This document shows positions 1-27,000 of a stretch of DNA of 64,000 bases, piece by piece. The stretch is from Somniosus microcephalus (lineage: Eukaryota). The notes below the pieces were generated by a model that made no database searches, had not been told where the DNA came from, and saw nothing but the letters and a program-made list of their open reading frames with translations. The DNA is taken from NCBI GenBank assembly GCA_052327205.1, contig CM126214.1, positions 32,612,001 to 32,676,000 of the forward strand, written 5' to 3'. The position numbers and the translations under genes were made by a program. The stretch's first letter is position 1. Every line of letters starts with the position of its first letter.

Positions 1-3000
1 CAGCATTGACAACAAATTCTATATCAACGCCACCAATTTCACAATCAGAATCATCTTCCCCGACAAGCATGACAGTGAAACTTGCTACAACTGAAACAGG
101 TACGAGTGAAATGATGACACCACAATTTGTAAAACACTGCAAGTAAGGTTATTGAGCTAAGAATTTGTGAAAGGTTGGATTCGAAGGCAAAATTCCCCAG
201 TTCCATGCTCCAGGCAGTTAGACATCTTGAAGGCAGCACTGCTCACAGAGAGGGCTGTAATCCTGATCGTCGAGGCCACAGTCACCTTAACCACAGATTC
301 TCACTGGGGGCTTTGGACTATACAATCTGCCCTAAAAAGATTGCAAATGGATAGAATTCTGTTCTTTCCAAAAAGGAGTTGAGGACAGCTCCATTAACCA
401 TATTCCTTTTCATTTACAGCAAGCATTACACAATTAACATCTACATTGCTCAGTACAACAGAGCCAGCAAATTCATCACCAACACAATCGTCTTCAACAG
501 CAAGCACTACTGTGACATTAAGCACAATGGAAACAAGTAAGTCAAAACAATTATACAACACATTGGGGAACAACAGTTTGCAGTTCTCTCTTTTAATTCA
601 TTGTTTGTTTTACAATGTGGAGTTGCATTAAAGAGAGCAATTTGAAATTCTGAGTCATGCATCAAGAAACTGTATTTGATACGTCCATGCACAACATGGA
701 TTGCAGAAATCACGCGCGTAACTGATACTATTCTTTCAATAGCTGCATCCACTGCAGCCACATCAACTGCTTCTGGGTCAGCAGAAATAACATCTGCACA
801 GGCAACACCTTCATCTGGCAGTACAGTGCAGCCAACAAATTCCATATCAGCAAGACCAAGCTCAGTAACACAATCATCTTCACCAGGAAGCACAACAGTG
901 ACATCAGTTACCAGTGAAACAGGTAGGATGGAAACCATTGCAACACTTTGTCGAACACTATTTGTCATGGCAAGGATTTTAGAAATTCAGAAAAATGGAT
1001 TGAAAAGTTCACAAACATAGATATTACTGTTCTTTCAAATGTAAGAAGGCACACAACACCAGGTTATAGTCCAACAGCTTTATTTGAAATCACAAGCTTT
1101 CGGAGCGCTGCTCCTTCTTCAGGTGAAGTGGAGAAATGCATAAAGGCACAGCTTATATAGTCAGAGAATCATGTCAGATGTTTACAGGTAACCTTTCCAA
1201 CTGCCATTTATCACACCTCGGCAGAGAGATAATCACAGCAGTCAAAGGTGTGAATGGTGTCCAAACAGGTCAGTCAGGGAAACATTACATCAAAGAACAA
1301 TGAGGTGGGGTCACAAGGGGTCAAATATTGCAGATGCTGGGGTCTGTATGAAAAACAAAGGCCATCCCCACGCCTCCACTACTCGCTTTCAAACAGCCGC
1401 CTAACCTCAAACAGACCATCGTTCGCAGCAAATTACCCAGCTTCCAGGAGAACAGCGACCACGACACCACACAACCCTGCCACAGCAACCTCTGCAAGAC
1501 ATGCCAGATCATCAACACAGATACCATCATCACACGTGAGGACACCACCCACCAGGTACATGGTACATACTCATGCGACTCGGCCAACGTTGTCTACCTC
1601 ATACGTTGCAGGAAAGGATGCCCCGGAGCATGGTACATCGGCGAGACCATGCAGACACTGCGACAACGGATGAACGGACACCGCGCAACAATCACCAGGC
1701 AGGAGTGTTCCCTTCCAGTCGGGGAACACTTCAGCAGTCAAGGACATTCAGCCTCCGATCTTCGGGTAAGCATTCTCCAAGGTGGCCTTCGAGACACACG
1801 ACAACGCAAAATCGTCGAGCAGAAACTGATAGCCAAGTTCCACACCCATGAGGACGGCCTCAACCGAGATCTTGGGTTCATGTCACGCTACATGTAACCC
1901 CACCTGATGCAGGGTCATCCAGACTCGAGTCGGCATTGGCTTGTTCTCTCTACACAGATGCGGCCGGACCTGCTGTGATTTCCAGCCAAAAAAAATGTTT
2001 TTTGTCTGTTTTTTTGTTTTTCATACAGACCCCAGCATCTGCAATATTTGACCCCTTGTGACCCCACCTCATTGTTCTTTGATGTAATGTTTCCCTGACT
2101 GACCTGTTTGGACACCATTCACACCTTTGACTGCTGTGATTATCTCTCTGCCGAGGTGTGATAAATGGCAGTTGGAAAGGTTACCTGTAAACATCTGACA
2201 TGATTCTCTGACTATATAAGCTATGTCTTTATGCATTTCTCCACTTCACCTGAAGAAGGAGCAGCGCTCCGAAAGCTTGTGATTTCAAATAAAGCTGTTG
2301 GACTATAACCTGGTGTTGTGTGACTTCTTACATTTGTCCACCCCAGTCCAACTCCGGCATCTCCACACCATGGCTACTATCAACAGCACAAACTGCCGGC
2401 TCAAAGTGGAGAGGATCTCCAAGAAGATCGCGCATATCGACACAGACATCAAGTTTCTACAGAGTTGCAAGAAAGCAGACAAGATCCCGAAAGGACTACA
2501 GATCACTAACCCACTCAAGTCGACCGACAACACAGACTACGCTGAGAGACTCTGCCGTCGTACCTCTCGCACACTCCTCAACCATCTCGTACACCAGCTC
2601 TACAGCAGACGCCGCAACCTCGAAACCGAGATGGAGTCCATGTTCTCAGCCTGTGCTCAGGACGCAGCAGACCAGCTACGAGACACCGCCAAACAAACAA
2701 GGCAACGGAACTACGCTACCTACATGCACACCAAGAACAGGAAGCTTGAGAAACTTGGCATCACCAGCAGCAGCAACCAAGCCTCCCCCGGTACCATGGT
2801 TGAAACCACAGGGAAATCCATCATCAACCTGTCCGACCACACCCTTCAACCAGACGAAATTGAAGTTCTCAGCCGAGGGCTCAATTTCTGCCCACCACCA
2901 AAATGGACCCCATCGGTCTCGCGGCAGACGCAGAGGAATTCATCAGGAGAATGAGGCTCCGGGAATTCTTCCACAAATCCCAAGATGTCAGCAGCGAACC

Positions 3001-6000
3001 CAATGAGACAATCAATGATCCGGAACAGCAGACAGAGGGATCCGCAGTGCAGCGACCGAAGAAGAAAGAGTCAAATTGGACCCCTCCGGAGGGTCGCTGC
3101 CCTAAGCTTGACATGTATGCTCAAGCTGTCAGGAGATGCATCAACGCCAGATTCATCAGCCGCACTCACAAGACAGTCCAGAATGTCACCCGAGCACAAC
3201 GCAACGCCATCCACGCTCTCAAGACCAACCGCAACATCGTCATCAAACCAGCAGACAAAGGAGGTGCCATCGTCATACAGAACAGAACGGACTATTGCAA
3301 AGAAGTATACCGACAACTGGACAACCAGGAACACTACAGACAGTTACCCGCAGATCCGACCAAAGAACACACCCGCCAACTCAACAGGCTGATCAAAACC
3401 TTCGATCCAGACCTTCAAAGCATCCTACATGCTCTCATCCCACGTACTCCCCGCGTGGGAGACTTCTACTGCCTCCCAAAGATATACAAAGCCAACACAC
3501 CTGGACGTCCTATCGCATCAGGCAACGGAACCCTGTGTGAGAACCTCTCTGGATATGTCGAGGGCATCCTGAAACCCATTGTACAGGGAACCCCCAGCTT
3601 CTGTCGCGACACTACAGACTTCTTACAGAAGCTCAGCACCCACAGACCAGTTGAACCAGGAACACTCCTCGCCACGATGGACGTCTCGGCACTCTACACC
3701 AGTATCCCCCACGACGACGGCATCGCTGCGACAGCCTCAGTACTCAACACCAACAACAGCCAATCTCCAGACGCCATCCTACAACTCATCCGCTTCATCC
3801 TTGACCACAATGTCTTCACCTTCGACAACCAGTTCTTTACCCAAACACACGGAACAGCCATGGGGACCAAATTCGCACCCCAATACGCAAACATCTTCAT
3901 GCACAAGTTCGAGCAAGACTTCTTCGCTGCACAGGATCTCCAACCAACGCTATACACCAGATACATCGACGACATTTTCTTCCTATGGACCCACGGCGAA
4001 GAATCACTGAAAAGACTACACGATAACATCAACAAGTTCCATCCCACCATCAAACTCACCATGGACTACTCCTCAGAATCAGTCTCATTCCTGGACACAC
4101 GAATCTCCATCAAAGACGGACACCTCAGCACTTCACTCTACCGCAAGCCCACGGACAACCTCACGATCCTTCACTTCGCCAGCTTCCACCCTAACCACGT
4201 TAAAGAAGCCATCCCCTGTGGACAATCCCTGCGAATACACAGGATCTGCTCAGACAAGGAGGAACGCGATGGACACCTACAGACACTGAAAGACGCCCTT
4301 GTAAGAACGGGATATGACGCTCGACTCGTCGAGCGACAGTTCTGACGGGCCACAGCGAAAAATCGCATAGACCTCCTCAGAAGACAAACATGGGACACAA
4401 CCAACAGAGTACCCTTCGTCGTCCAGTACTTCCCCGGAGCGGAGAAACTACGCCATGTTCTTCGCAGCCTTCAACATGTCATCGATGACGATGAACACTT
4501 CGCTAAGGCCATCCCCACGCCTCCACTACTCGCTTTCAAACAGCCGCCTAACCTCAAACAGACCATCGTTCGCAGCAAATTACCCAGCTTCCAGGAGAAC
4601 AGCGACCACGACACCACACAACCCTGCCACAGCAACCTCTGCAAGACATGCCAGATCATCAACACAGATACCATCATCACACGTGAGGACACCACCCACC
4701 AGGTACATGGTACATACTCATGTGGCTCGGCCAACGTTGTCTACCTCATACTTTGCAGGAAAGGATGCCCCGGAGCATGGTACATCGGCGAGACCATGCA
4801 GACACTGCGACAACGGATGAACGGACACCGCGCAACAATCACCAGGCAGGAGTGTTCCCTCCCAGTCGGGGAACACTTCAGCAGTCAAGGACATTCAGCC
4901 TCCGATCTTCGGGTAAGCATTCTCCAAGGTGGCCTTCGAGACACACGACAACGCAAAATCGTCGAGCAGAAACTGATAGCCAAGTTCCGCACCCATGAGG
5001 ACGGCCTCAACCGAGATCTTGGGTTCATGTCACGCTACATGTAACCCCACCTGATGCAGGGTCATCCAGACTCGAGTCGGCATTGGCTTGTTCTCTCTAC
5101 ACAGATGCGGCCGGACCTGCTGTGATTTCCAGCCAAAAAAAATGTTTTTTGTCTGTTTTTTTGTTTTTCATACAGACCCCAGCATCTGCAATATTTGACC
5201 CCTTGTGACCCCACCTCATTGTTCTTTGATGTAATGTTTCCCTGACTGACCTGTTTGGACACCATTCACACCTTTGACTGCTGTGATTATCTCTCTGCCG
5301 AGGTGTGATAAATGGCAGTTGGAAAGGTTACCGGTAAACATCTGACATGATTCTCTGACTATATAAGCTGTGTCTTTATGCATTTCTCCACTTCACCTGA
5401 AGAAGGAGCAGCGCTCCGAAAGCTTGTGATTTCAAATAAAGCTGTTGGACTATAACCTGGTGTTGTGTGACTTTATACATTTGTCCACCCCAGTCCAACT
5501 CCGGCATCTCCACACCATGTTCTTTCAAAAGGTGCATCAAGTGTAGCAGCATCAACTCCAATCACATCATCTCCAGAAAAAACTCCACATTCATCTGTGT
5601 TGCCCGTCAGTACAAGAGAGACTACAAATTCCCTACCAACACAATCGTCTCCATTAACAAGCAGTACTGGAACATTATTCACAACTGAAACAAGTAAGAC
5701 AAAGTCATTTATGCAATACATGGGGTACAATATGGAATTTACGGCCCAGAAAAATAAAAGCTTTTGTTCTTTCTAAAGGTGGGTCAAGTACAGTGCGATC
5801 ATCTGCCATTGTGTCAACTCCATCATCTCCAATGTCAACATTGTCATCTTCTGGTACAGCAGTGACAACAAATTCTATATCAACGCTACCAATTTCACAA
5901 TCAGAATCATCTTCCCCGACAAGCACGACAGTGACACTTGCTACAACTGAAACAGGTACGAGTGAAATGATGACACCACAATTTGTAAAACACTGCAAGT

Positions 6001-9000
6001 AAGGTTATTGAGCTAAGAATTTGTGAAAGGTTGGATTCGAAGGCAAAATTCCCCAGTTCCATGCTCCAGGCAGTTAGACATCTTGAAGGCAGCACTGCTC
6101 AAAGAGAGGGCTGTAATCCTCATCGTTGAGGCCACAGTCACCTTAACCACAGTTTCTCACTGGGGGCTTTGGACTATACAATCTGCCCTATAAAGATTGC
6201 AAAGGGATAGAATTCCATTCTTTCCAAAAAGGAGTTGAGGACAGCTCCATTAATCATATTCCTTTTCATTTACAGCAAGCATTACACAGTTAACATCTAC
6301 ATTGCTCAGTACAACAGAGCCAGCAAATTCATCACCAACGCAATCGTCTTCAACAGCAAGCACTACTGTGACATTAAGCACAACGGAAACAAGTAAGTCA
6401 AAACAATTATACAACACATTGGGGAACAACAGTTTGCAGTTCTCTCTTTTAATTCATTGTTTGTTTTACAATGTGGAGTTGCATTAAAGAGAGCAAGTTG
6501 AAATTCGGAGTCATGCATCAAGAAACTGTGTTTGATACGTCCATGCACAACATGGATTGCAGAATTCACGCGCATAACTGATTCTATTCTTTCAATAGGT
6601 GCATCAACTGCAGCCACATCAACTACTTCTGGGTCAGCAGAAATAACATCTGCACAGGCAACACCTTCATCTGGCAGTACAGTGCAGCCAACAAATTCCA
6701 TATCAACAAGACCAAGCTCAGTAACACAATCATCTTCACCAGGAAGCACAACAGTGACATCAGTTACCAGTGAAACAGGTAGGATGGAAACCATTGCAAC
6801 ACTTTGTCGAACACTATTTGTCACGGCAAGGATTTTAGAAGTTCAGAAAAATGGATTGAAAAGTTCACAAACATAGATATTACTGTTCTTTCAAAAGGTG
6901 CATCAAGTGTAGCAGCATCAACTCCAATCACATCATCTCCAGAAAAAACTCCACATTCATCTGTGTTGCCCGTCAGTACAAAAGAGACAACAAATTCCCC
7001 ACCAACACAATCGTCTCCATTAACAAGCAGTACTGGAACATTATTCACAACTGAAACAAGTAAGACAAAGTCAATTATGAAGTACATGGTGTACAAGATG
7101 GAATTTACGGCCCAGAAAAATAAAAGCTTTTTTTCGTTCTAAAGGTGGGTCAAGTACAGTGCGATCATCTGCCATTGTGTCAACTCCATCATCTCCACTG
7201 TCAACATTGTCATCTTCTGGTACAGCAGTGAAAATAAATTCTATATCAACGCCACCAATTTCACAACCAGAATCATCTTCCCCGACAAGCACGACAGTGA
7301 CACTTGCGACAACTGAAACAGGTACGAGTGAAATGATGACACCACAATTTGTAAAACACTGCAAGTAAGGTTATTGAGATAAGAATTTGTGAAAGGTTGG
7401 ATTCGAAGGCAAAATTCCCCAGTTCCATGCTCGAGGCAGTTAGACGTCTTGAAGGCAGCACTGCTCAAAGAGAGGGCTGTAATCCTGATCGTCGAGGCCA
7501 CAGTCACCTTAACCACAGATTCTCACTGGGGGCTTTGGAATACACAATCTGCCTTATAAAGATTGCAAAGGGATAGAATTCCGTTCATTCCAAAAAGGAG
7601 TTGAGGACAGCTCCATTAACCATATTCCTTTTCATTTACAGCAAGCATTACACAATTAACATCTACATTGCTCAGTACAACAGAGCCAGCAAATTCATCA
7701 CCAACACAATCGTCTTCAACAGCAAGCACTACTGTGACATTAAGCACAATGGAAACAAGTAAGTCAAAACAATTATGCAACACATTGGGGAACAACAGAT
7801 TGCAGTTCTCTCTTTTAATTCATTGTTTGTTTTACAATGTGGAGTTGCATTAAAGAGAGCAAGTTGAAATTCTGAGTCATGCATCAGAAACTGTATTTGA
7901 TACGTCCATGCACAACATGGATTGCAGAATTCACGCGCATAACTGATACTATTCTTTCAATAGGTGCATCAACTGCAGCCACATCAACTACTTCTGGGTC
8001 AGCAGAAATAACATCTGCACAGGCAACACCTTCATCTGGCAGTACAGTGCAGCCAACAAATTCCATATCAAGAAGACCAAGCTCAGTAACACAATCACCT
8101 TCACCAGGAAGCACAACAGTGATATCAGTTACCAGTGAAAAAGGTAGGATGGAAACCATTGCAGCATTTTGTCGAACACTATTTGTCACGGCAAGGCTTT
8201 TAGAAATTCAGAAAAATGGATTGAAAAGTTCGCAAACATAGATATTATTATTGTTCTTTCAAAAGGTGCATCAAGTGTAGCAGCATCAACTCCAATCACA
8301 TCATCTCCAGAAAAAACTCCACATTCATCTGTGTTGCCCGTCAGTACAAAAGAGACAACAAATTCCCCACCAACACAATCGTCTCCATTAACAAGCAGCA
8401 CTGGAACATTATTCACAACTGAAACAAGTAAGGCAAAGTCAATTATGAAATACATGGTGTACAAGATGGAATTTACGGCCCAGAAAAATAAAAGCTTTTT
8501 TTCTTTCTAAAGGTGGGTCAAGTACAGTGCGATCATCTGCCATTGTGTCAAGTCCATCATCTCCACTGTCAACATTGTCATCTTCTGGTACAGCAGTGAC
8601 AATAAATTCTATATCAACGCCACCAATTTCACAACCAGAATCATCTTCCCCGACAAGCACTACATTGACATTTGCTACAACTGAAACAGGTACGAGTGAA
8701 ATGATGACACCACAATTTGTAAAACACTGCAAGTAAGGTTATTGAGCTGAGAATTTGTGAAAGGTTGGATTCGAAGGCAAAATTCCCCAGTTCCATGCTT
8801 CAGGCAGTTAGACGTCTTGAAGTCAGCACTGCTCACAGAGAGGGCTGTAATCCTGATCGTCAAGGCCACAGTCACCTTAACCACAGATTCTCACTGGGGG
8901 CTTTGGAATATACAATCTGCCCTATAAAGATTGCAAAGGGATAGAATTCCGTTCTTTCCAAAAAGGAGTTGAGGACAGCTCCATTAACCATATTCCTTTT

Positions 9001-12000
9001 CATTTACAGCAAGCATTACACAGTTAACATCTACATTGCTCAGTACAACAGAGCCAGCAAATTCATCACCAACGCAATCGTCTTCAACAGCAAGCACTAC
9101 TGTGAGATTAAGCACAACGGAAACAAGTAAGTCAAAACAATTATACAACACATTGGGGAACAACAGTTTGCAGTTCTCTCTTTTAATTCATTGTTTGTTT
9201 TACAATGTGGAGTTGCATTAAAGAGAGCAAGTTGAAATTCTGAGTCATGCATCAAGAAACTGTGTTTGATACGTCCATGCACAACATGGATTGCAGAATT
9301 CACGCGCATAACTGATTCTATTCTTTCAATAGGTGCATCAACTGCAGCCACATCAACTACTTCTGGGTCAGCAGAAATAACATCTGCACAGGCAACACCT
9401 TCATCTGGCAGTACAGTGCAGCCAACAAATTCCATATCAACAAGACCAAGCTCAGTAACACAATCATCTTCACCAGGAAGCACAACAGTGACATCAGTTA
9501 CCAGTGAAACAGGTAGGATGGAAACCATTGCAACACTTTGTCGAACACTATTTGTCACGGCAGGGATTTTAGAAGTTCAGAAAAATGGATTGAAAAGTTC
9601 ACAAACATAGATATTACTGTTCTTTCAAAAGGTGCATCAAGTGTTGCAGCATCAACTCCAATCACATCATCTCCAGAAAAAACTCCACATTTATCTGTGT
9701 TGCCCGTCAGTACAAAAGAGACAACAAATTCCCCACCAACACAATCGTCTCCATTAACAAGCAGTACTGGAACATTATTCACAACTGAAACAAGTAAGAC
9801 AAAGTCAATTATGAAATACATGGTGTACAAGATGGAATTTACGGCCCAGAAAAATAAAAGCTTTTTTTCGTTCTAAAGGTGGGTCAAGTACAGTGCGATC
9901 ATCTGCCATTGTGTCAACTCCATCATCTCCACTGTCAACATTGTCATCTTCTGGTACAGCAGTGACAATAAATTCTATATCAACGCCACCAATTTCACAA
10001 CCAGAATCATCTTCCCCGACAAGCACGACAGTGACACTTGCTACAACTGAAACAGGTACGAGTGAAATGATGACACCACAATTTGTAAAACACTGCAAGT
10101 AAGGTTATTGAGATAAGAATTTGTGAAAGGTTGGATTCGAAGGCAAAATTCCCCAGTTCCATGCTCCAGGCAGTTAGACGTCTTGAAGGCAGCACTGCTC
10201 AAAGAGAGGGCTGTAATCCTGATCGTCGAGGCCACAGTCACCTTAACCACAGATTCTCACTGGGGGCTTTGGAATACACAATCTGCCTTATAAAGATTGC
10301 AAAGGGATAGAATTCCGTTCTTTCCAAAAAGGAGTTGAGGACAGCTCCATTAACCATATTCCTTTTCATTTACAGCAAGCATTACACAATTAACATCTAC
10401 ATTGCTCAGTACAACAGAGCCAGCAAATTCATCACCAACGCAATCGTCTTCAACAGCAAGCACTACTGTGAGATTAAGCACAACGGAAACAAGTAAGTCA
10501 AAACAATTATACAACACATTGGGGAACAACAGTTTGCAGTTCTCTCTTTTAATTCATTGTTTGTTTTACAATGTGGAGTTGCATTAAAGAGAGCAAGTTG
10601 AAATTCTGAGTCATGCATCAAGAAACTGCGTTTGATACGTCCATGCACAACATGGATTGCAGAATTCACGCGCATAACTGATTCTATTCTTTCAATAGGT
10701 GCATCAACTGCAGCCACATCAACTACTTCTGGGTCAGCAGAAATAACATCTGCACAGGCAACACCTTCATCTGGCAGTACAGTGCAGCCAACAAATTCCA
10801 TATCAACAAGACCAAGCTCAGTAACACAATCATCTTCACCAGGAAGCACAACAGTGACATCAGTTACCAGTGAAACAGGTAGGATGGAAACCATTGCAAC
10901 ACTTTGTCGAACACTATTTGTCACGGCAAGGATTTTAAAAGTTCAGAAAAATGGATTGAAAAGTTCACAAACATAGATATTACTGTTCTTTCAAAAGGTG
11001 CATCAAGTGTAGCAGCATCAACTCCAATCACATCATCTCTAGAAAAAACTCCACATTCATCTGTGTTGCCCGTCAGTACAAAAGAGACAACAAATTCCCC
11101 ACCAACACAATCGTCTCCATTAACAAGCAGTACTGGAACATTATTCACAACTGAAACAAGTAAGACAAAGTCAATTATGAAATACATGGTGTACAAGATG
11201 GAATTTACGGCCCAGAAAAATAAAAGCTTTTTTTCGTTCTAAAGGTGGGTCAAGTACAGTGCGATCATCTGCCATTGTGTCAACTCCATCATCTCCACTG
11301 TCAACATTGTCATCTTCTGGTACAGCAGTGACAATAAATTCTATATCAACGCCACCAATTTCACAACCAGAATCATCTTCCCCGACAAGCACGACAGTGA
11401 CACTTGCTACAACTGAAACAGGTACGAGTGAAATGATGACACCACAATTTGTAAAACACTGCAAGTAAGGTTATTGAGCTAAGAATTTGTGAAAGGTTGG
11501 ATTCGAAGGCAAAATTCCCCAGTTCCATGCTCCAGGCAGTTAGACGTCTTGAAGGCAGCACTGCTCAAAGAGAGGGCTGTAATCCTGATCGTCGAGGCCA
11601 CAGTCACCTTAACCACAGATTCTCACTGGGGGCTTTGGAATACACAATCTGCCTTATAAAGATTGCAAAGGGATAGAATTCCGTTCTTTCCAAAAAGGAG
11701 TTGAGGACAGCTCCATTAACCATATTCCTTTTCATTTACAGCAAGCATTACACAGTTAACATCTACATTGCTCAGTACAACAGAGCCAGCAAATTCATCA
11801 CCAACGCAATCGTCTTCAACAGCAAGCACTACTGTGAGATTAAGCACAACGGAAACAAGTAAGTCAAAACAATTATACAACACATTGGGGAACAACAGTT
11901 TGCAGTTCTCTCTTTTAATTCATTGTTTGTTTTACAATGTGGAGTTGCATTAAAGAGAGCAAGTTGAAATTCTGAGTCATGCATCAAGAAACTGTGTTTG

Positions 12001-15000
12001 ATACGTCCATGCACAACATGGATTGCAGAATTCACGCACATAACTGATTCTATTCTTTCAATAGGTGCATCAACTGCAGCCACATCAACTACTTCTGGGT
12101 CAGCAGAAATAACATCTGCACAGGCAACACCTTCATCTGGCAGTACAGTGCAGCCAACAAATTCCATATCAACAAGGCCAAGCTCAGTAACACAATCATC
12201 TTCACCAGGAGGCACAACAGTGACATCAGTTCCCAGTGAAACAGGTAGGATGGAAACCATTGCAACACTTTGTCGAACACTATTTGTCACGGCAAGGATT
12301 TTAGAAGTTCAGAAAAATTGATTGAAAAGTTCACAAACATAGATATTACTGTTCTTTCAAAAGGTGCATCAAGTGTAGCAGCATCAACTCCAATCACATC
12401 ATCTCCAGAAAAAACTCCACATTCATCTGTGTTGCCCGTCAGTACAAAAGAGACAACAAATTCCCCACCAACACAATCGTCTCCATTAACAAGCAGTACT
12501 GGAACATTATTCACAACTGAAACAAGTAAGACAAAGTCAATTATGAAATACATGGTGTACAAGATGGAATTTACGGCCCAGAAAAATAAAAGCTTTTTTT
12601 CGTTCTAAAGGTGGGTCAAGTACAGTGCGATCATCTGCCATTGTGTCAACTCCATCATCTCCACTGTCAACATTGTCATCTTCTGGTACAGCAGTGACAA
12701 TAAATTCTATATCAACGCCACCAATTTCACAACCAGAATCATCTTCCCCGACAAGCACGACAGTGACACTTGCTCCAACTGAAACAGGTACGAGTGCAAT
12801 GATGACACCACAATTTGTAAAACACTGCAAGTAAGGTTATTGAGCTAAGAATTTGTGAAAGGTTGGATTCGAAGGCAAAATTCCCCAGTTCCATGCTCCA
12901 GGCAGTTAGACGTCTTGAAGGCAGCACTGCTCAAAGAGAGGGCTGTAATCCTGATCGTCGAGGCCACAGTCACCTTAACCACAGATTCTCACTGGGGGCT
13001 TTGGAATACACAATCTGCCTTATAAAGATTGCAAAGGGATAGAATTCCGTTCTTTCCAAAAAGGAGTTGAGGACAGCTCCATTAACCATATTCCTTTTCA
13101 TTTACAGCAAGCATTACACAATTAACATCTACATTGCTCAGTACAACAGAGCCAGCAAATTCATCACCAACACAATCGTCTTCAACAGCAAGCACTACTG
13201 TGACATTAAGCGCAATGGAAACAAGTAAGTCAAAACAATTATACAACACATTGGGGAACAACAGTTTGCAGTTCTCTCTTTTAATTCATTGTTTGTTTTA
13301 CAATGTGGAGTTGCATTAAAGAGAGCAAGTTGAAATTCTGAGTCATGCATCAAGAAACTGTGTTTGATACGTCCATGCACAACATGGATTGCAGAATTCA
13401 CGCGCATAACTGATTCTATTCTTTCAATAGGTGCATCAACTGCAGCCACATCAACTACTTCTGGGTCAGCAGAAATAACATCTGCACAGGCAACACCTTC
13501 ATCTGGCAGTACAGTGCAGCCAACAAATTCCATATCAAGAAGACCAAGCTCAGTAACACAATCACCTTCACCAGGAAGCACAACAGTGATATCAGTTACC
13601 AGTGAAACAGGTAGGATGGAAACCATTGCAACACTTTGTCGAACACTATTTGTCACGGCAAGGATTTTAGAAGTTCAGAAAAATGGATTGAAAAGTTCAC
13701 AAACATAGATATTACTGTTCTTTCAAAAGGTGCATCAAGTGTAGCAGCATCAACTCCAATCACATCATCTCCAGAAAAAACTCCACATTCATCTGTGTTG
13801 CCCGTCAGTACAAAAGAGACAACAAATTCCCCACCAACACAATCGTCTCCATTAACAAGCAGTATTGGAACATTATTCACAACTGAAACAAGTAAGACAA
13901 AGTCAATTATGAAATACATGGTGTACAAGATGGAATTTACGGCCCAGAAAAATAAAAGCTTTTTTTCGTTCTAAAGGTGGGTCAAGTACAGTGCGATCAT
14001 CTGCCATTGTGTCAACTCCATCATCTCCACTGTCAACATTGTCATCTTCTGGTACAGCAGTGACAATAAATTCTATATCAACGCCACCAATTTCACAACC
14101 AGAATCATCTTCCCCGACAAGCACGACAGTGACACTTGCTACAACTGAAACAGGTACGAGTGAAATGATGACACCACAATTTGTAAAACACTGCAAGTAA
14201 GGTTATTGAGATAAGAATTTGTGAAAGGTTGGATTCGAAGGCAAAATTCCCCAGTTCCATGCTCCAGGCAGTTAGACGTCTTGAAGGCAGCACTGCTCAA
14301 AGAGAGGGCTGTAATCCTGATCGTCGAGGCCACAGTCACCTTAACCACAGATTCTCACTGGGGGCTTTGGAATACACAATCTGCCTTATAAAGATTGCAA
14401 AGGGATAGAATTCCGTTCTTTCCAAAAAGGAGTTGAGGACAGCTCCATTAACCATATTCCTTTTCATTTACAGCAAGCATTACACAATTAACATCTACAT
14501 TGCTCAGTACAACAGAGCCAGCAAATTCATCACCAACGCAATCGTCTTCAACAGCAAGCACTACTGTGAGATTAAGCACAACGGAAACAAGTAAGTCAAA
14601 ACAATTATACAACACATTGGGGAACAACAGTTTGCAGTTCTCTCTTTTAATTCATTGTTTGTTTTACAATGTGGAGTTGCATTAAAGAGAGCAAGTTGAA
14701 ATTCTGAGTCATGCATCAAGAAACTGCGTTTGATACGTCCATGCACAACATGGATTGCAGAATTCACGCGCATAACTGATTCTATTCTTTCAATAGGTGC
14801 ATCAACTGCAGCCACATCAACTACTTCTGGGTCAGCAGAAATAACATCTGCACAGGCAACACCTTCATCTGGCAGTACAGTGCAGCCAACAAATTCCATA
14901 TCAACAAGACCAAGCTCAGTAACACAATCATCTTCACCAGGAAGCACAACAGTGACATCAGTTACCAGTGAAACAGGTAGGATGGAAACCATTGCAACAC

Positions 15001-18000
15001 TTTGTCGAACACTATTTGTCACGGCAAGGATTTTAGAAGTTCAAAAAAATGGATTGAAAAGTTCACAAACATAGATATTACTGTTCTTTCAAAAGGTGCA
15101 TCAAGTGTAGCAGCATCAACTCCAATCACATCATCTCCAGAAAAAACTCCACATTCATCTGTGTTGCCCGTCAGTACAAAAGAGACAACAAATTCCCCAC
15201 CAACACAATCGTCTCCATTAACAAGCAGTACTGGAACATTATTCACAACTGAAACAAGTAAGACAAAGTCAATTATGAAATACATGGTGTACAAGATGGA
15301 ATTTACGGCCCAGAAAAATAAAAGCTTTTTTTCGTTCTAAAGGTGGGTCAAGTACAGTGCGATCATCTGCCATTGTGTCAACTCCATCATCTCCACTGTC
15401 AACATTGTCATCTTCTGGTACAGCAGTGACAATAAATTCTATATCAACGCCACCAATTTCACAACCAGAATCATCTTCCCCGACAAGCACGACAGTGACA
15501 CTTGCTACAACTGAAACAGGTACGAGTGAAATGATGACACCACAATTTGTAAAACACTGCAAGTAAGGTTATTGAGCTAAGAATTTGTGAAAGGTTGGAT
15601 TCGAAGGCAAAATTCCCCAGTTCCATGCTCCAGGCAGTTAGACGTCTTGAAGGCAGCACTGCTCAAAGAGAGGGCTGTAATCCTGATCGTCGAGGCCACA
15701 GTCACCTTAACCACAGATTCTCACTGGGGGCTTTGGAATACACAATCTGCCTTATAAAGATTGCAAAAGGATAGAATTCCGTTCTTTCCAAAAAGGAGTT
15801 GAGGACAGCTCCATTAACCATATTCCTTTTCATTTACAGCAAGCGTTACCCAGTTAACATCTACATTGCTCAGTACAACAGAGCCAGCAAATTCATCACC
15901 AACGCAATCGTCTTCAACAGCAAGCACTACTGTGAGATTAAGCACAACGGAAACAAGTAAGTCAAAACAATTATACAACACATTGGGGAACAACAGTTTG
16001 CAGTTCTCTCTTTTAATTCATTGTTTGTTTTACAATGTGGAGTTGCATTAAAGAGAGCAAGTTGAAATTCTGAGTCATGCATCAAGAAACTGTGTTTGAT
16101 ACGTCCATGCACAACATGGATTGCAGAATTCACGCGCATAACTGATTCTATTCTTTCAATAGGTGCATCAACTGCAGCCACATCAACTACTTCTGGGTCA
16201 GCAGAAATAACATCTGCACAGGCAACACCTTCATCTGGCAGTACAGTGCAGCCAACAAATTCCATATCAACAAGACCAAGCTCAGTAACACAATCATCTT
16301 CACCAGGAAGCACAACAGTGACATCAGTTACCAGTGAAAAAGGTAGGATGGAATCCATTGCAGCACTTTGTCGAACACTAGTTGTCACGGCAAGGCTTTT
16401 AGAAATTCAGAAAAATGGATTGAAAAGTTCCCATACTTAGATATTACTGTTCTTTCAAAAGGTGCATCAAGTGTAGCAGCATCAACTCCAATCACATCAT
16501 CTCCAGAAAAAACTCCACATTCATCTGTGTTGCCCGTCAGTACAAAAGAGACAACAAATTCCCCACCAACACAATCGTCTCCATTAACAAGCAGTACTGG
16601 AACATTATTCACAACTGAAACAAGTAAGACAAAGTCAATTATGAAATACATGGTGTACAAGATGGAATTTACGGCCCAGAAAAATAAAAGCTTTTTTTCG
16701 TTCTAAAGGTGGGTCAAGTACAGTGCGATCATCTGCCATTGTGTCAACTCCATCATCTCCACTGTCAACATTGTCATCTTCTGGTACAGCAGTGACAATA
16801 AATTCTATATCAACGCCACCAATTTCACAACCAGAATCATCTTCCCCGACAAGCACGACAGTGACACTTGCTCCAACTGAAACAGGTACGAGTGCAATGA
16901 TGACACCACAATTTGTAAAACACTGCAAGTAAGGTTATTGAGCTAAGAATTTGTGAAAGGTTGGATTCGAAGGCAAAATTCCCCAGTTCCATGCTCCAGG
17001 CAGTTAGACGTCTTGAAGGCAGCACTGCTCAAAGAGAGGGCTGTAATCCTGATCGTCGAGGCCACAGTCACCTTAACCACAGATTCTCACTGGGGGCTTT
17101 GGAATACACAATCTGCCTTATAAAGATTGCAAAGGGAAAGAATTCCGTTCTTTCCAAAAAGGAGTTGAGGACAGCTCCATTAACCATATTCCTTTTCATT
17201 TACAGCAAGCATTACACAATTAACATCTACATTGCTCAGTACAACAGAGCCAGCAAATTCATCACCAACACAATCGTCTTCAACAGCAAGCACTACTGTG
17301 ACATTAAGCGCAATGGAAACAAGTAAGTCAAAACAATTATACAACACATTGGGGAACAACAGTTTGCAGTTCTCTCTTTTAATTCATTGTTTGTTTTACA
17401 ATGTGGAGTTGCATTAAAGAGAGCAAGTTGAAATTCTGAGTCATGCATCAAGAAACTGTGTTTGATACGTCCATGCACAACATGGATTGCAGAATTCACG
17501 CGCATAACTGATTCTATTCTTTCAATAGGTGCATCAACTGCAGCCACATCAACTACTTCTGGGTCAGCAGAAATAACATCTGCACAGGCAACACCTTCAT
17601 CTGGCAGTACAGTGCAGCCAACAAATTCCATATCAAGAAGACCAAGCTCAGTAACACAATCACCTTCACCAGGAAGCACAACAGTGATATCAGTTACCAG
17701 TGAAAAAGGTAGGATGGAAACCATTGCAGCATTTTGTCGAACACTATTTGTCACGGCAAGGCTTTTAGAAATTCAGAAAAATGGATTGAAAAGTTCGCAA
17801 GCATAGATATTATTATTGTTCTTTCAAAAGGTGCATCAAGTGTAGCAGCATCAACTCCAATCACATCATCTCCAGAAAAAACTCCACATTCATCTGTGTT
17901 GCCAGTCAGTACAAAAGAGACAACAAATTCCCCACCAACACAATCGTCTCCATTAACAAGCAGCACTGGAACATTATTCACAACTGAAACAAGTAAGGCA

Positions 18001-21000
18001 AAGTCAATTATGAAATACATGGTGTACAAGATGGAATTTACGGCCCAGAAAAATAAAAGCTTTTTTTCTTTCTAAAGGTGGGTCAAGTACAGTGCGATCA
18101 TCTGCCATTGTGTCAAGTCCATCATCTCCACTGTCAACATTGTCTTCTTCTGGTACAGCAGTGACAATAAATTCTATATCAACGCCACCAATTTCACAAC
18201 CAGAATCATCTTCCCCGACAAGCACTACATTGACATTTGCTACAACTGAAACAGGTACGAGTGAAATGATGACACCACAATTTGTAAAACACTGCAAGTA
18301 AGGTTATTGAGCTAAGAATTTGTGAAAGGTTGGATTCGAAGGCAAAATTCCCCAGTTCCATGCTCCAGGCAGTTAGACGTCTTGAAGGCAGCACTGCTCA
18401 CAGAGAGGGCTGTAATCCTGATCGTCAAGGCCACAGTCACCTTAACCACAGATTCTCACTGGGGGCTTTGGAATATACAATCTGCCCTATAAAGATTGCA
18501 AAAGGATAGAATTCCGTTCTTTCCAAAAAGGAGTTGAGGACAGCTCCATTAACCATATTCCTTTTCATTTACAGCAAGCGTTACCCAGTTAACATCTACA
18601 TTGCTCAGTACAACAGAGCCAGCAAATTCATCACCAACGCAATCGTCTTCAACAGCAAGCACTACTGTGAGATTAAGCACAACGGAAACAAGTAAGTCAA
18701 AACAATTATACAACACATTGGGGAACAACAGTTTGCAGTTCTCTCTTTTAATTCATTGTTTGTTTTACAATGTGGAGTTGCATTAAAGAGAGCAAGTTGA
18801 AATTCTGAGTCATGCATCAAGAAACTGTGTTTGATACGTCCATGCACAACATGGATTGCAGAATTCACGCGCATAACTGATTCTATTCTTTCAATAGGTG
18901 CATCAACTGCAGCCACATCAACTACTTCTGGGTCAGCAGAAATAACATCTGCACAGGCAACACCTTCATCTGGCAGTACAGTGCAGCCAACAAATTCCAT
19001 ATCAACAAGACCAAGCTCAGTAACACAATCATCTTCACCAGGAAGCACAACAGTGACATCAGTTACCAGTGAAACAGGTAGGATGGAAACCATTGCAACA
19101 CTTTGTCGAACACTATTTGTCACGGCAAGGATTTTAGAAGTTCAGAAAAATGGATTGAAAAGTTCACAAACATAGATATTACTGTTCTTTCAAAAGGTGC
19201 ATCAAGTGTAGCAGCATCAACTCCAATCACATCATCTCCAGAAAAAACTCCACATTCATCTGTGTTGCCCGTCAGTACAAAAGAGACAACAAATTCCCCA
19301 CCAACACAATCGTCTCCATTAACAAGCAGTACTGGAACATTATTCACAACTGAAACAAGTAAGACAAAGTCAATTATGAAATACATGGTGTACAAGATGG
19401 AATTTACGGCCCAGAAAAATAAAAGCTTTTTTTCGTTCTAAAGGTGGGTCAAGTACAGTGCGATCATCTGCCATTGTGTCAACTCCATCATCTCCACTGT
19501 CAACATTGTCATCTTCTGGTACAGCAGTGACAATAAATTCTACATCAACGCCAGCAATTTCACAACCAGAATCATCTTCCCCGACAAGCACGACAGTGAC
19601 ACTTGCTACAACTGAAACAGGTACGAGTGAAATGATGACACCACAATTTGTAAAACACTGCAAGTAAGGTTATTGAGCTAAGATTTTTTAAAGGTTGGAT
19701 TCGAAGGCAAAATTCCCCAGTTCCATGCTCCAGGCAGTTAGACGTCTTGAAGGCAGCACTGCTCAAAGAGAGGGCTGTAATCCTGATCGTCGAGGCCACA
19801 GTCACCTTAACCACAGATTCTCACTGGGGGCTTTGGAATACACAATCTGCCTTATAAAGATTGCAAAGGGATAGAATTCCGTTCTTTCCAAAAAGGAGTT
19901 GAGGACAGCTCCATTAACCATATTCCTTTTCATTTACAGCAAGCATTACACAATTAACATCTACATTGCTCAGTACAACAGAGCCAGCAAATTCATCACC
20001 AACACAATCGTCTTCAACAGCAAGCACTACTGTGACATTAAGCACAATGGAAACAAGTAAGTCAAAACAATTATGCAACACATTGGGGAACAACAGATTG
20101 CAGTTCTCTCTTTTAATTCATTGTTTGTTTTACAATGTGGAGTTGCATTAAAGAGAGCAAGTTGAAATTCTGAGTCATGCATCAAGAAACTGTATTTGAT
20201 ACGTCCATGCACAATATGGATTGCAGAATTCACGCGCATAACTGATACTATTCTTTCAATAGGTGCATCAACTGCAGCCACCTCAACTACTTCTGGGTCA
20301 GCAGAAATAACATCTGCACAGGCAACACCTTCATCTGGCAGTACAGTGCAGCCAACAAATTCCATATCAACAAGACCAAGCTCAGTAACAGAATCACCTT
20401 CACCAGGAAGCACAGCAGTGATATCAGTTACCAGTGAAAAAGGTAGGATGGAAACCATTGCAGCATTTTGTCGAACACTATTTGTCACGGCAAGGCTTTT
20501 AGAAATTCAGAAAAATGGATTGAAAAGTTCGCAAACATAGATATTATTACTGTTCTTTCAAAAGGTGCATCAAGTGTAGCAGCATCAACTCCAATCACAT
20601 CATCTGCAGAAAAAACTCCACATTCATCTGTGTTGCCCGTCAGTACAAATGAGGCAACAAATTCCCCACCAACACAATCGTCTCCATTAACAAGCAGTAC
20701 TGGAACATTATTCACAACTGAAACAAGTCAGACAATGTCAATTATGAAATACATGGCGTACAATATGGAATTTACGGCCCAGAAAAATAAAAGCTTTTTT
20801 TCTTTCTAAAGGTGAGTCAAGTACAGTGCGATCATCTGCCATTGTGTCAACTCCATCATCTCCACTGTCAACATTGTCATCTTCTGGTACAGCAGTGACA
20901 ACAAATTCTATATCAACACCACCAATTTCACAATCAGAATCATCTTCCCCGACAAGCACGACAGTGTCACTTGCTCCAAATGAAACAGGTACGAGTGAAA

Positions 21001-24000
21001 TGATGACACCAAAATTTGTAAAACACTGCAATTAAGGTTATTGAGCTAAGAGTTTGTGAAAGGTTGGATTCGAAGGCAAAATTCCCCAGTTCCATGCTCC
21101 AGGCAGTTAGACGTCTTGAAGGCAGCACTGCTCACAGAGAGGGCTGAAATCCTAATCGTGGAGGGCACAGTCACCTTAACCACAGATTCTCACTGGGGGC
21201 TTTGGACTACACAATCTGCCCTATAAAGATTGCAAAGGATAGAATTCCTTTCTTTCCAAATAGGAGTTCAGGACAGCTCCATTAACCATATTCCTTTCAT
21301 TTACAGCAAGCATTACACAATTAACATCTACATTGCTCAGTACAACAGAGCCAGCAAATTCATCACCAACACAATCGTCTTCAACAGCAAGCACTACTGT
21401 GACATTAAGCACAATGGAAACAAGTAAGTCAAAACAATTATACAACACATTGGGGAACAACAGTTTGCAGTTCTCTCTTTTAATTCATTGTTTGTTTTAC
21501 AATGTGGAGTTGCATTAAAGAGAGCAAGTTGAAATTCTGAGTCATGCATCAAGAAACTGTATTTGATACGTCCATGCACAACATGATTGCAGAATTCACG
21601 CGCATAACTGATACTATTCTTTCAATAGGTGCATCAACTGCAGCCACATCAACTACTTCTGGGTCAGCAGAAATAACATCTGCACAGGCAACACCTTCAT
21701 CTGGCAGTACAGTGCAGCCAACAAATTCCATATCAACAAGACCAAGCTCAGTAACACAATCACCTTCACCAGGAAGCACAACAGTGATATCAGTTACCAG
21801 TGAAAAAGGTAGGATGGAAACCATTGCAGCATTTTGTCGAACACTATTTGTCACGGCAAGGCTTTTAGAAATTCAGAAAAATGGATTGAAAAGTTCACAA
21901 ACATAGATATTACTGTTCTTTCAAAAGGTGCGTCAAGTGTAGCAGCATCAACTCCAATCACATCATCTCCAGAAAAATCTCCACATTCATCTGTGTTGCC
22001 CGTCAGTACAAAAGAGACAACAAATTCCCCACCAACACATTCGTCTCCATTAACAAGCAGTACTGGAACATTATTCACAACTGAAACAAGTAAGACAAAG
22101 TCAATTATGAAATACATGGTGTACAAGATGGAATTTACGGCCCAGAAAAATAAAAGCTTTTTTTCTTTCTAAAGGTGGGTCAAGTACAGTGCGATCATCT
22201 GCCATCGTGTCAACGCCATCATCTCCACTGTCAACATTGTCATCTTCTGGTACAGCAGTGAAAATAAATTATATATCAACGCCACCAATTTCACAACCAG
22301 AATCATCTTCCCCGACAAGCACGACAGTGACACTTGCTACAACTGAAACAGGTACGAGTGAAATGATGACACCACAATTTGTAAAACACTGCAAGTAAGG
22401 TTATTGAGCTAAGAATTTGTGAAAGGTTGGATTGGAAGGCAAAATTCCCCAGTTCCATGCTCCAGGCAGTTAGACGTCTTGAAGGCAGCACTGCTCACAG
22501 AGAGGGCTGTAATGCTGATCGTCGAGGCCACAGTCACCTTAACCACAGATTCCCACTGGGGGCTTTGGACTGTACAATCTGCCCTAAAAAGATTGCAAAG
22601 GGATAGAATTCTGTTCTTTCCAAAAAGGAGTTGAGGACAGCTCCATTAACCATATTCCTTTTCATTTACAGCAAGCATTACACAGTTAACATCTACATTG
22701 CTCAGTACAACAGAGCCAGCAAATTCATCACCAACACAATCGTCTTCAACAGAAAGCACTACTGTGACATTAAGCACAACGGAAACAAGTAAGTCAAAAC
22801 AATTAAACAACACATTGTGGAACTACAGTTTGCAGTTCTCTCTTTTAATTCATTGTTTGTTTTACAATGTGGAGTTGCATTAAAGAGAGCAAGTTGAAAT
22901 TCTGCGTCATGCATCAGGAAACTGTATTTGATACGTCCATGCACAACATGGATTGCAGAATCCACGCGCATAACTGATACTATTCTTTCAACAGGTGCAT
23001 CAACTGCAGCCACATCAACTACTTCTGGGTCAGCAGAAATAACATCTGCACAGGCAACACCTTCATCTGGCAGTACAGTGCAGCCAACAAATTCCATATC
23101 AACAAGACCAAGCTCAGTAACACAATCATCTTCACCAGGAAGCACAACAGTGACATCAGTTACCAGTGAAAAAGGTAGGATGGAAACCATTGCAGCACTT
23201 TGTCGAACACTATTTGTCACGGCAAGGCTTTTAGAAATTCAGAAAAATGGATTGAAAAGTTCACAAACATAGATATTACTTTTCTTTTAAAAGGTGCGTC
23301 AAGTGTAGCAGCATCAACTCCAATTGCATTATCTCCAGAAAAAACTCCACATTCATCAGTGCTACCCGTCAGTACAAGAGAGACAGCAAATTCCCCACCA
23401 ACACAATCGTCTCCATTAACAAGCAGTACTGGAACATTATTCACAACTGAAACAAGTAAGACAAAGTCAATTATGCAATACATGGTGTACAAGATGGAAT
23501 TTACGGCCCAGAAAAATAAAAGCTTTTTTTCTTTCTAAAGGTGGGTCAAGATCATCTGCCATTGTGTCAACTCCATCATCACCACTGTCAACATTGTCAT
23601 CTTCTGGTACAGCAGTGACAATCAATTATGTATCAACGCCACCAATTTCACAACCAGAATCATCTTCCCCGACAAGCACGACAGTGACACTTGCTACAAC
23701 TGAAACAGGTACGAGTGAAATGATGACACCACAATTTGTAAAACACTGCAAGTAAGGTTATTGAGCTAAGAATTTGTGAAAGGTTGGATTCGAAGGCAAA
23801 ATTCCGCAGTTCCATGCTGCAGGCAGTTAGACGTCTTGAAGGCAGCACTGCTCACAGAGAGGGCTGTAATCCTGATCGTCGAGGCCACAGTCACCTTAAC
23901 CACAGATTCTCACTGGGGGCTTTGGACTATACAATCTGCCCTATAAAGATTGCAAAGGGATAGAATTCCGTTCTTTCCAAAAAGGAGTTGAGGACAGCTC

Positions 24001-27000
24001 CATTAACCATATTCCTTTTCATTTACAGCAAGCATTACACAGTTAACATCTACATTGCTCAGTACAACAGAGCCAGCAAATTCATCACCAACACAATCGT
24101 CTTCAACAGCAAGCACTACTGTGACATTAAGCACAACGGAAACAAGTAAGACAAAACAATTATACAACACATTGGGGAACAACAGTTTGCAGTTCTCTCT
24201 TTTAATTCATTGTTTGTTTTACAATGTGGAGTTGCATTAAAGAGAGCAAGTTGAAATTCTGAGTCATGCATCAAGAAACTTTGGCCTAGAAATTCTGTGG
24301 GCTTTGCGCCCAGTTAAGGCCCAAAGAGGGCTTCTGCACCAGTAGAGGAGGTTGCGCTGATATTGAGCTCGGCGGTAATAGCGGCGGTAGCCGGTAGCGC
24401 TGCGCCGGCACCGATGACATCATCGGTGTGCGCAGTGCCCCGTTTCTGCCCCGATGCCGGCCCGACCCCCATATTCAGTTGCCGCCGCCTCCTCTGTGGC
24501 GGCCGCCACTAACCTCCGGAGACCAGGGCCTTACTGCAGCCTTAGCGGGGCGCATAAAGGTGGAGGAGCGGCCGGCCGCTTTTTCGGCAGCCGCCTGCCC
24601 GCACCTCCATCCCCGGCCTCCTCCACCACCCCCCATTGCCGGCTGCTTTCCACGAGCCCGGCACTTCTCCGTGGTGCCAGGCTCATTTGCCGGCACAATC
24701 CAGCGGCGATCTCCCCGTTGCAGGCACCTCCACCTTAAGAGAAAGAGGAGGCCTGCAGTACCGCAGCCTGCCGCACCGCATCGGGTGGCGCAGCGGCACC
24801 TAGAGCGCAGAAATTCAGTTTCAGCGCCCCAAGCGGGGGCGGGCACACCCTGGAATAGCGCCCAGTTCCGACTTGGGGCGCAAAAACTGAATATCTGACG
24901 GTCGCAACTGACTCCGCGCCCAGCGCTAACTTTTGGGTGCTAGCCAGCTTGCGGGGCCATAGTGAATTTCTAGGCCTGTATTTGATACGTCCATGCACAA
25001 CATGGATTGCAGAATTCACGCGCATAACTGATACTATTCTTTCAATAGGTGCATCAACTGCGGCCACATCAACTACTTCTGGGTCAGCAGAAATAACATC
25101 TGCACAGGCAACATCGTCATCTGGCAGTACAGTGCAGCCAACAAATTCCATATCAACAAGACCAAGCTCAGTAACACAATCATCTTCACCAGGAAGCACA
25201 ACAGTGATATCAGTTACCAGTGAAAAAGGTAGGATGGAAACCATTGCAGCATTTTGTCGAACACTATTTGTCACGGCAAGGCTTTTAGAAATTCAGAAAA
25301 ATGGATTGAAAAATTCACAAACATAGACATTACTGTTCTTTCAAAAGGTGCATCTAGTGTAGCAGCATCAACTCCGATCACATCATCTCCAGAAAAAACT
25401 CCACATTCATCTGTGTTGCCCGTCAGTACAAAAGAGGCAACAAATTCCCCACCAACACAATCGTCTCCATTAACAAGCAGTACTGGAACATTATTCACAA
25501 CTGAAACAAGTAAGACAAAGTCAATTATGCAATACACGGTGTACAAGATGGAATTTACGGCCCAGAAAAATAAAAGCTTTTTTTCTTTCTAAAGGTGGTT
25601 CAAGTAGAGTGCAATCATCTGCCATTGTGTCAACTCCATCATCTCCACTGTCAACATTGTCATCTTCTGGTACAGCAGTGACAATAAATTATGTATCAAC
25701 GCCACCAATTTCACAACCAAAATCATCTTCCCCGACAAGCACGACAGTGACACTTGCTACAACTGAAACAGGTACGAGTGAAATGATGACACCACAATTT
25801 GTAAAACACTGCAAGTAAGGTTATTGAGCTAAGAATTTGTGAAAGGTTGGATTCGAAGGCAAAATTCCGTAGTTCCATGCTCCAGGCAGTTAGACGTCTT
25901 GAAGGCAGCACTGCTCACAGAGAGGGCTGTAATCCTGATCGTCGAGGCCACAGTCACCTTAACCACAGATTCTCACTGGGGGCTTTCGACGATACAATCT
26001 GCCGTATAAAGATTGCAAAGGGATAGAATTCCGTTCTTTCCAAAAAGGAGTTGAGGACAGCTCCATTAACCATATTCCTTTTCATTTACAGCAAGCATTA
26101 CACAGTTAACATCTACATTGCTCAGTACAACAGAGCCAGCAAATTCATCACCAACACAATCGTCTTCAACAGCAAGCACTACTGTGACATTAAGCACAAC
26201 GGAAACAAGTAAGTCAAAACAATTATACAACACATTGGGGAACAACAGTTTGCAGTTCTCTCTTTTAATTCATTGTTTGTTTTAAAATGTGGAGTTGCAT
26301 TAAAGAGAGCAAGTTGAAATTCTGAGTCATGCATCAAGAAACTGTATTTGATACATCCATGCACAACATGGATTGCAGAATTCACGCGCATAACTGATTC
26401 TATTCTTTCAATAGGTTCATCAACTGCAGCCACATCAACTACTTCTGGGTCAGCAGAAATAACATCTGCACAGGCAACACCTTCATCTGGCAGTACAGTG
26501 CAGCCAACAAATTCCATATCAACAAGACCAAGCTCAGTAACACAATCATCTTCACCAGGAAGCACAACAGTGACATCAGTTACCAGTGAAAAAGGTAGGA
26601 TGGAATCCATTGCAGCACTTTGTCGAACACTAGTTGTCACGGCAAGGCTTTTAGAAATTCAGAAAAATGGATTGAAAAGTTCCCATACTTAGATATTACT
26701 GTTCTTTCAAAAGGTGCATCAAGTGTAGCAGCATCAACTCCAATCACATCATCTCCAGAAAAAACTCCACATTCATCTGTGTTGCCCGTCAGTACAAAAG
26801 AGACAACAAATTCCCCACCAACACAATCGTCTCCATTAACAAGCAGTACTGGAACATTATTCACAACTGAAACAAGTAAGACAAAGTCAATTATGAAATA
26901 CATGGTGTACAAGATGGAATTTACGGCCCAGAAAAATAAAAGCTTTTTTTCGTTCTAAAGGTGGGTCAAGTACAGTGCGATCATCTGCCATTGTGTCAAC

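Follow-up and report, generated by a model that had tools for sequence, protein, structure and literature searches.

Hundreds of short exons in one tandem array all keep the same reading frame, which raises the question of where this symmetry comes from and what it allows the gene to do. The 64,000-nt stretch of DNA analysed here (the window) is, over its whole length, a tandem array of a 1366-nt unit that is interrupted by insertions and contains four exons (A-B-C-D) with 636 coding nt in total. The array spans G000:C13:32490951 to about 32676250, with 121 kb lying upstream of the window and its end just past the window. Tandem Repeats Finder did not detect this array, because the period is >500. 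We defined the array and one of its units as follows.

420..63908, plus strand: tandem PTS exon array, the portion inside the window (37 A-B-C-D units, 148 exons)
6276..6392, plus strand: exon type A, 117 nt, phase 1-1 (joints 6392-6599 and D-A present in RNA-type contigs)
6599..6778, plus strand: exon type B, 180 nt, phase 1-1 (boundaries and RNA-type contigs)
6898..7059, plus strand: exon type C, 162 nt, phase 1-1 (boundaries and RNA-type contigs)
7145..7321, plus strand: exon type D, 177 nt, phase 1-1 (boundaries and RNA-type contigs)

The original prediction, made from the window alone, stated that every exon length is a multiple of three. This was true of 148 of 148 complete window exons (37 per type, with one more D cut by the window start) and of 283 of 283 intact copies across the 185-kb array, all of which were also phase 1-1 and stop-free. 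Four window copies of exon D were 168 nt long. Joining all 148 window exons yielded an open frame of 7831 codons, in which Ser (28.7%), Thr (23.9%) and Pro (9.0%) together made up 61.6% (PTS) and Cys was absent. Window exons ended in A or G and started with GT (110), CA (37) or CT (1, the B at 743), and the junction codons found were those predicted (AGT, GGT, ACA and GCA) together with ACT and GCT from the exon B at 743. The predicted set of exon starts was correct for the window and incomplete for the array, where AT (3) and TT (1, at a dead acceptor) also occurred; these starts add junction codons for Asp, Asn, Val and Ile and create no stop. All pairwise window junctions were free of stops, in agreement with the claim that any skipping pattern remains in frame and stop-free, and this follows automatically because a stop at a phase-1 junction requires an exon that ends in T. 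The frame symmetry is one inherited property, not 148 independent ones.

In order to evaluate the origin of the symmetry, we compared the four exon types. The A-B, A-C, A-D and B-D alignments scored above 300 of 300 codon shuffles, B-C and C-D homology was weak when considered alone (11/300 and 33/300 shuffles reached the score), and the exon ends are common to all four types. Four independent introns would all be phase 1 with a chance of ~1%, using human frequencies (from the available part of PMC3632108), but this figure is not applicable here, as the exon types are homologous and their introns are therefore not independent. Symmetry as independent evidence for a splicing code was likewise rejected because of this homology. 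Symmetric phase is a precondition for tandem exon duplication, and among neighbouring human exons of high similarity, 108 of 118 have the same symmetric phase (PMC3632108, same part); extracellular modules are as a rule class 1-1, and a phase-1 intron tends to follow the signal peptide (available part of PMC8001218). Given the homology of the exon types and the prevalence of phase 1 among extracellular proteins, the symmetry is expected and ordinary. Judged by these alignments, the matching frames appear to stem from the copying of one exon type: A-D would descend from a single symmetric exon, and the four-exon unit would then have been amplified by unequal crossover. The intron end before A (window 6240-6300) aligns, by alignment only, with the 5' coding part of B, C and D, and the sequence suggests that A may have arisen when the acceptor moved to an AG further inside the exon, with the phase kept.

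Gain and loss of units, which the original prediction had expected to be tolerated, were borne out by higher-order repeats, in-frame hybrids, partial-unit deletions and persisting disabled exons. Length change by unequal crossover is seen in the higher-order repeats, which measure 8886 and 12987 nt and contain identical stretches of about 2.8 kb; copy number within them may be wrong in the assembly. In-frame A/B hybrid exons numbered 12 among the 283 intact copies. One 117-nt hybrid (L008:9446-9562), which recurs in 11 further copies upstream of the window, begins as A and ends as B, as recombination at a shared motif would leave it, one intron and most of B being lost in frame.

A more specific claim was that the array could tune glycoprotein length combinatorially by splicing. 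We addressed this with 7 of the 14 listed runs (X1 being used twice), which came from other samples than the assembly and whose contigs collapse repeats; none of the listed data sets was registered as RNA. The contig sets X1, X4, X2 and X3, from two studies, were taken as RNA by guess, though they skip introns at GT..AG; X8 was rejected as RNA, since its introns were covered evenly and it behaves as DNA. The A-B, B-C and D-A joints were present in all four RNA-type contig sets, with C-D listed in two, each joint falling where the exon boundaries had been predicted, and the RNA contigs differed by 0-2 from exons A, B and C of the last unit. No skip joints (B-D, D-B or A-C) were found among the joints listed in the four contig sets, contigs being prone to lose rare variants, and the complete joint table of X1 held zero skip-type joints at a main contig depth of 68.8. 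The raw RNA runs provided 0 and 2 reads, too few to test skipping. Thus only adjacent A-B-C-D-A joints were listed, which is the outcome that the original prediction had set against itself, and combinatorial length tuning gained no support from them. We consider it rather unlikely that regulated or stochastic skipping of intact exons generates a range of mucin lengths within one animal. Every such skip would be in frame, the acceptors AAG in C and D look weak, and three C donors read GTCAGA; however, the listed joints are of the adjacent kind only, and descent plus the class 1-1 rule (available parts of PMC8001218 and PMC3632108) fully explains the symmetry on which this reading draws.

Tandem exon arrays mimic both back-splices and skips in short reads. 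After removal of disabled copies, 15 of 274 neighbouring genomic exon pairs were already of skip type (2/145 in the window), namely D-B 6, B-D 3 and one each of C-A, D-C, C-C, D-D, B-B and A-C. Because the genome itself encodes such skip-type neighbours, the count of junction types put forward with the original prediction is confounded and cannot by itself show alternative splicing, and unit-specific variants are needed. In the same way, the D-A joint shows as one that goes back when a contig is placed on a single unit. We also weighed the proposal that the array makes open-frame circular RNAs, which would be translated by the rolling-circle route. A 636-nt A-B-C-D circle would be a multiple of three and stop-free in the coding frame, and 15 of the 148 window exons carry an in-frame Met. 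However, linear D(n)-A(n+1) splicing would produce the back joint as well, the depth of this joint equals that of the forward joints in the same contig, and a circle would be without the signal peptide; inverted repeats of >=25 nt across exons were absent from the part of the window searched (5500-64000). We regard such circles as very improbable. The original prediction thus stood in its observation and was supported in part in its interpretation, as gain and loss of units held up while combinatorial splicing and circular RNA gained no support.

One intron was retained in an RNA-type contig.

6779..6897, plus strand: B-C intron, 119 nt, retained in one X1 contig

The X1 contig with this intron had a depth of 15.3 vs 45.4 for the spliced form (about a quarter of the sum), the other introns having 0-2.3, and its retention would lead to a stop. 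It is conceivable, and in our judgement quite improbable, that dead splice sites and B-C retention lead to shortened secreted forms with Ser/Thr-rich sequence only, or to substrates for decay, and not to clean skips. Counted by class, 143 of 147 window introns would meet a stop within the first 47 codons if retained, as would every C-D intron except one, and in the last A-like exon 10 codons precede an in-frame stop. However, the retention comes from a single contig of a single run and is equally explained by unspliced precursor, and a stop so far upstream is generally expected to trigger decay. The C-D intron of 84 nt at window 52186-52269 has no stop, and its retention would keep the frame.

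Several copies in the array are disabled, including two in the window.

34915..35076, plus strand: exon C whose donor is dead (TT); either skipping, with a B-D joint, or use of a cryptic site is predicted
43801..43962, plus strand: exon C, second dead-donor copy, 8886 nt downstream, a higher-order duplicate

These TT donors, which the original prediction had overlooked, represent one mutation in two copies and affect 2 of the 148 window exons. Across the array, 9 of 283 copies were without AG or GT (8 dead, 1 GC). Cryptic in-frame sites are located near some dead sites (a +15 acceptor in D and a -30 donor in C), and rescue at dead sites may not have to be skipping. At a length of 85-320 nt, the introns may themselves be the units that are recognised, in which case a dead donor results in retention, not skipping. 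At G000:C13:32595544-32595774, the acceptor of an exon C has been displaced by an insertion of 231 nt in which the acceptor motif occurs three more times, and the exon now follows GAG.

Larger lesions are due to insertions. The array contains 22 insertions or gaps: 5 interrupt an exon and are flanked by a target duplication, 14 lie in introns and 3 are complex; by a hand count after merging copies, with the 3 complex ones set aside, the 14 intronic insertions correspond to 9 events. The window contains the following (a strand is given where one was assigned).

1040..5517, plus strand: retroelement with a reverse transcriptase and a Penelope-like layout, inside a B-C intron
24281..24975: insertion of 695 nt within an A-B intron; duplication of the array has placed further copies at 37268, 46154 and 50945
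54938..59260: DNA transposon (DDE_Tnp_4 transposase, Harbinger-like) in a C-D intron
61438..63101, plus strand: 1664-nt retroelement fragment in the last A-B intron

The target duplication of the retroelement at 1040..5517 restores the acceptor of exon C. This element is young: the copies of its 1013-nt direct repeat are 99.1% identical. Its end is also present as an inverted copy of 320 nt, and its reverse transcriptase frame is broken by a stop near 4345. The 1664-nt fragment was spliced out in all four RNA-type contig sets placed on the last unit. A short terminal sequence is common to the Harbinger-like transposon (54938-59260) and to several other insertions (24281-24975; G000:C13:32493707, 32514951, 32603573), and three different elements have inserted within ~10 nt of one site in the A-B intron.

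We then asked which kinds of lesion the array has accumulated. Distinct variants were scored as departures from the majority sequence of the exon type concerned, and the substitution rates of the introns supplied the neutral expectation; the 12 hybrid exons and the introns with large insertions were left out, and such distinct-variant counts ignore recurrence and gene conversion. Across the array, synonymous changes numbered 105 vs 101.9 expected and missense changes 233 vs 262.8 expected, while nonsense changes were absent (0 vs 19.0 expected, P 6e-9). The 636 exon bases held no indel other than multiples of three, as against 31 such indels in the 730 intron bases, of which 23 were away from homopolymers (P 6e-7); the exon indels were two, of 9 and 12 nt. 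The sole frameshift in any exon copy was located inside a copy already split by an insertion. Two sub-region counts had returned 1 and 2 'stop' changes, which were an artefact of local-majority single-base scoring, as no exon copy has a stop. Changes at splice dinucleotides numbered 6 distinct vs 11.2 expected (P 0.07), and large insertions numbered 5 in exons vs 9 events in introns (exon depletion P 0.30); large insertions and small frameshifts in exons differed significantly from each other (Fisher P 0.002). Protein-ending changes are thus purged, whereas exon-disabling changes are not clearly depleted and are largely tolerated. As truncating lesions are purged and disabling ones are not clearly depleted, the disabled copies are probably skipped, and skipping in frame is the simplest reading of these counts. 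Phase symmetry likely acts as a buffer in that damaged copies drop out harmlessly. This lesion spectrum is a useful new result. A pseudogene or satellite was also considered, and was ruled out by selection and splicing.

All 5 split exons are located in the 5' part of the array, and this part could be recently dead. In such a case it would be dead or bypassed in one jump, or the gene recently truncated, and the broken exons would not be translated. The 2 truncated exons and 7 of the 9 non-canonical sites are likewise upstream of the window, and two of the exon-splitting inserts are young (terminal repeats 97.8 and 98.8% alike). However, the intact upstream exons are without stop or frameshift while their introns carry 23 indels that are not multiples of three, and one split exon has accumulated 17 mismatches over 135 nt with its neighbours still open, so breakage and selection overlapped in time. 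In the region upstream of the broken copies, such indels numbered 0 in exons vs 17 in introns, and purifying selection also holds there. We regard a dead 5' part as improbable, and retain the reading in which damaged copies are skipped in frame. Its wider form, in which both intact and disabled exons would be skipped, so that one allele would give rods of many lengths up to ~15,000 residues and symmetry would buffer knockouts by transposons and splice-site mutations, we find doubtful.

The array belongs to a larger gene model, whose terminal exons are as follows.

G000:C13:32436595: candidate signal-peptide exon, 26 codons (hydrophobicity, ATG and phase-1 donor only)
C13:32784484-32784596: TM exon, single membrane helix
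C13:32789481: tail exon, 33 codons, with stop and AATAAA

The candidate signal-peptide exon is 54 kb upstream of the array, and a genome search for it found no homologue or paralogue. The 275 usable repeat exons total 14,570 codons. In the 3' direction, the array is followed by a degenerate A, a unique 201-nt phase 1-1 PTS exon, SEA exons, the TM exon and the tail exon. The last A-like exon (L021:227-300) has an intact acceptor and no matching donor, and its stop, if the exon were used, would terminate the protein ahead of its SEA part. This part, located downstream, comprises seven SEA domains, each encoded by three exons. Pfam SEA was matched by 11 of 14 SEA exon pieces at E<=0.05, with scores mostly below the whole-domain cut-off, the pieces being half domains. 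A profile of the third exons matched, in the PDB, Mucin-16 chains at 3.4e-9 to 3.6e-8 and 1ivz, which we take to be mouse Muc16, and no other SEA protein; the first-exon profile matched 1ivz (4.5e-4), then Mucin-1 and Mucin-16 at 0.05-0.13, and a single SEA exon reached E 0.28 only. A Cys pair 17-18 residues apart is present in 5 of the 7 SEA domains and missing in 2, the conserved pair of the MUC16 SEA repeat being spaced by about 19 residues.

The MUC16-type features present are a long N-terminal Ser/Thr/Pro region, tandem SEA domains, a single TM helix and a short tail. The locus is likely a ~300-exon, ~15,500-residue gene for a MUC16-like membrane mucin, which we named 'MUC16-like', not MUC16, because the human exon layout (few large mucin exons, 156-aa five-exon repeats) was not matched; here there are ~280 short exons and three exons per SEA domain, and no linker exons were identified. 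From order and phase we infer that the signal exon, array, SEA exons and membrane anchor form one transcript. The U1 and SEA exons had no joint among those listed in the RNA records, where the bin of the second SEA exon had depth 0, nor did any listed joint link the array to the signal exon or the SEA exons. TM-exon matches in the genome numbered six, all at C13 32.78-33.97 Mb (within 1.2 Mb), an interval with a cluster of at least 6 MUC16-like genes and many SEA exons. In one paralogue of the cluster, the PTS region is a Thr/Pro repeat that forms one uninterrupted 1791-codon frame, and thus single-exon and many-exon mucin domains coexist in one cluster. The exon array or its unit had no match in 200 kb over the next paralogue, nor in seven 10-kb stretches of other paralogues.

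The explanation that we favour, and hold with fair assurance as a whole, is a MUC16-like gene with ordered splicing in which damaged copies are skipped in frame. A single transcript would run from the candidate signal-peptide exon through the array to the SEA exons and membrane anchor, with ~280 short phase 1-1 exons joined in order to encode a Ser/Thr/Pro stalk. Heavy O-glycosylation would make this stalk a long glycocalyx rod whose length would matter more than its sequence, missense changes being nearly neutral. The skipping of ~15 disabled copies would be fixed and encoded by the genome, with the frame kept, and not regulated combinatorial skipping. If this model is true, a single exon can be lost to a transposon or a splice-site mutation while the protein is kept. 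The lesion spectrum provides direct evidence, at the level of sequence, that damage can be buffered by phase symmetry. Repeat-per-exon mucins are already known, and control of their length by splicing has been proposed since 2006 and is still open; this gene suits tests of length control, as it offers hundreds of exons with unit-specific variants, and its ~15 disabled copies are built-in positive controls for skipping.

A literature search, in which subscription journals were poorly covered, found no paper on a Muc16 exon array in cartilaginous fish. Splicing of FIM-B.1 has been the subject of a paper. Among the described mucins, FIM-C.1 is polymorphic via alternative splicing (available part of PMC7177656), and the available part of Lang et al. 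2016 (PMC4948705) does not mention Muc16. MUC16/CA125 (human, mouse and chicken Muc16) shares with the gene described here a very long Ser/Thr-rich N-terminal region (12,068 residues in human vs ~14,570 here), several tandem MUC16-type SEA domains with the Cys pair, one membrane helix and a short tail (PMC3431878, available part). In contrast, the amino domain of human MUC16 is encoded by 9 exons and has a nearly fixed length (PMC3431878 and PMC13345508, available parts), whereas here ~275 usable exons form a young array; human MUC16 has dozens of five-exon 156-aa repeats where this gene has seven three-exon SEA domains. As the gene described here is one of at least 6 paralogues, its likeness to MUC16 is one of domains and need not mean orthology.

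Chicken Muc13 shares a spliced mucin domain of the repeat-per-exon type, with near-identical exons that contain one repeat each, and length control by alternative splicing and recombination was proposed for it (Lang et al. 2006, available part of PMC1552070). It has a single SEA domain and no fewer than 12 repeats, each 20 aa long (same source), whereas the gene described here has ~280 exons of 39-60 codons, a four-exon unit and seven SEA domains. In SmPoMuc of Schistosoma mansoni, a repeat exon and its flanking introns are likewise amplified as ~1-kb tandem units, and frame-keeping splice variants are documented; its exons, however, are of 27 nt with at most 20 genomic repeats, the proteins are secreted by a parasite, and alternative splicing is found in the C-terminal region (available part of PMC2576457). 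Compared with known repeat-per-exon mucins, the gene described here is unusual in its very large exon-array stalk on a MUC16-like mucin. It shares with disordered regions made by tandem duplication of symmetric exons, and with class 1-1 modules, the same symmetric phase and the phase-1 intron after the candidate signal peptide (PMC3632108 and PMC8001218, available parts), and differs from those regions in its larger scale and in the disabled copies that persist inside an apparently selected array.
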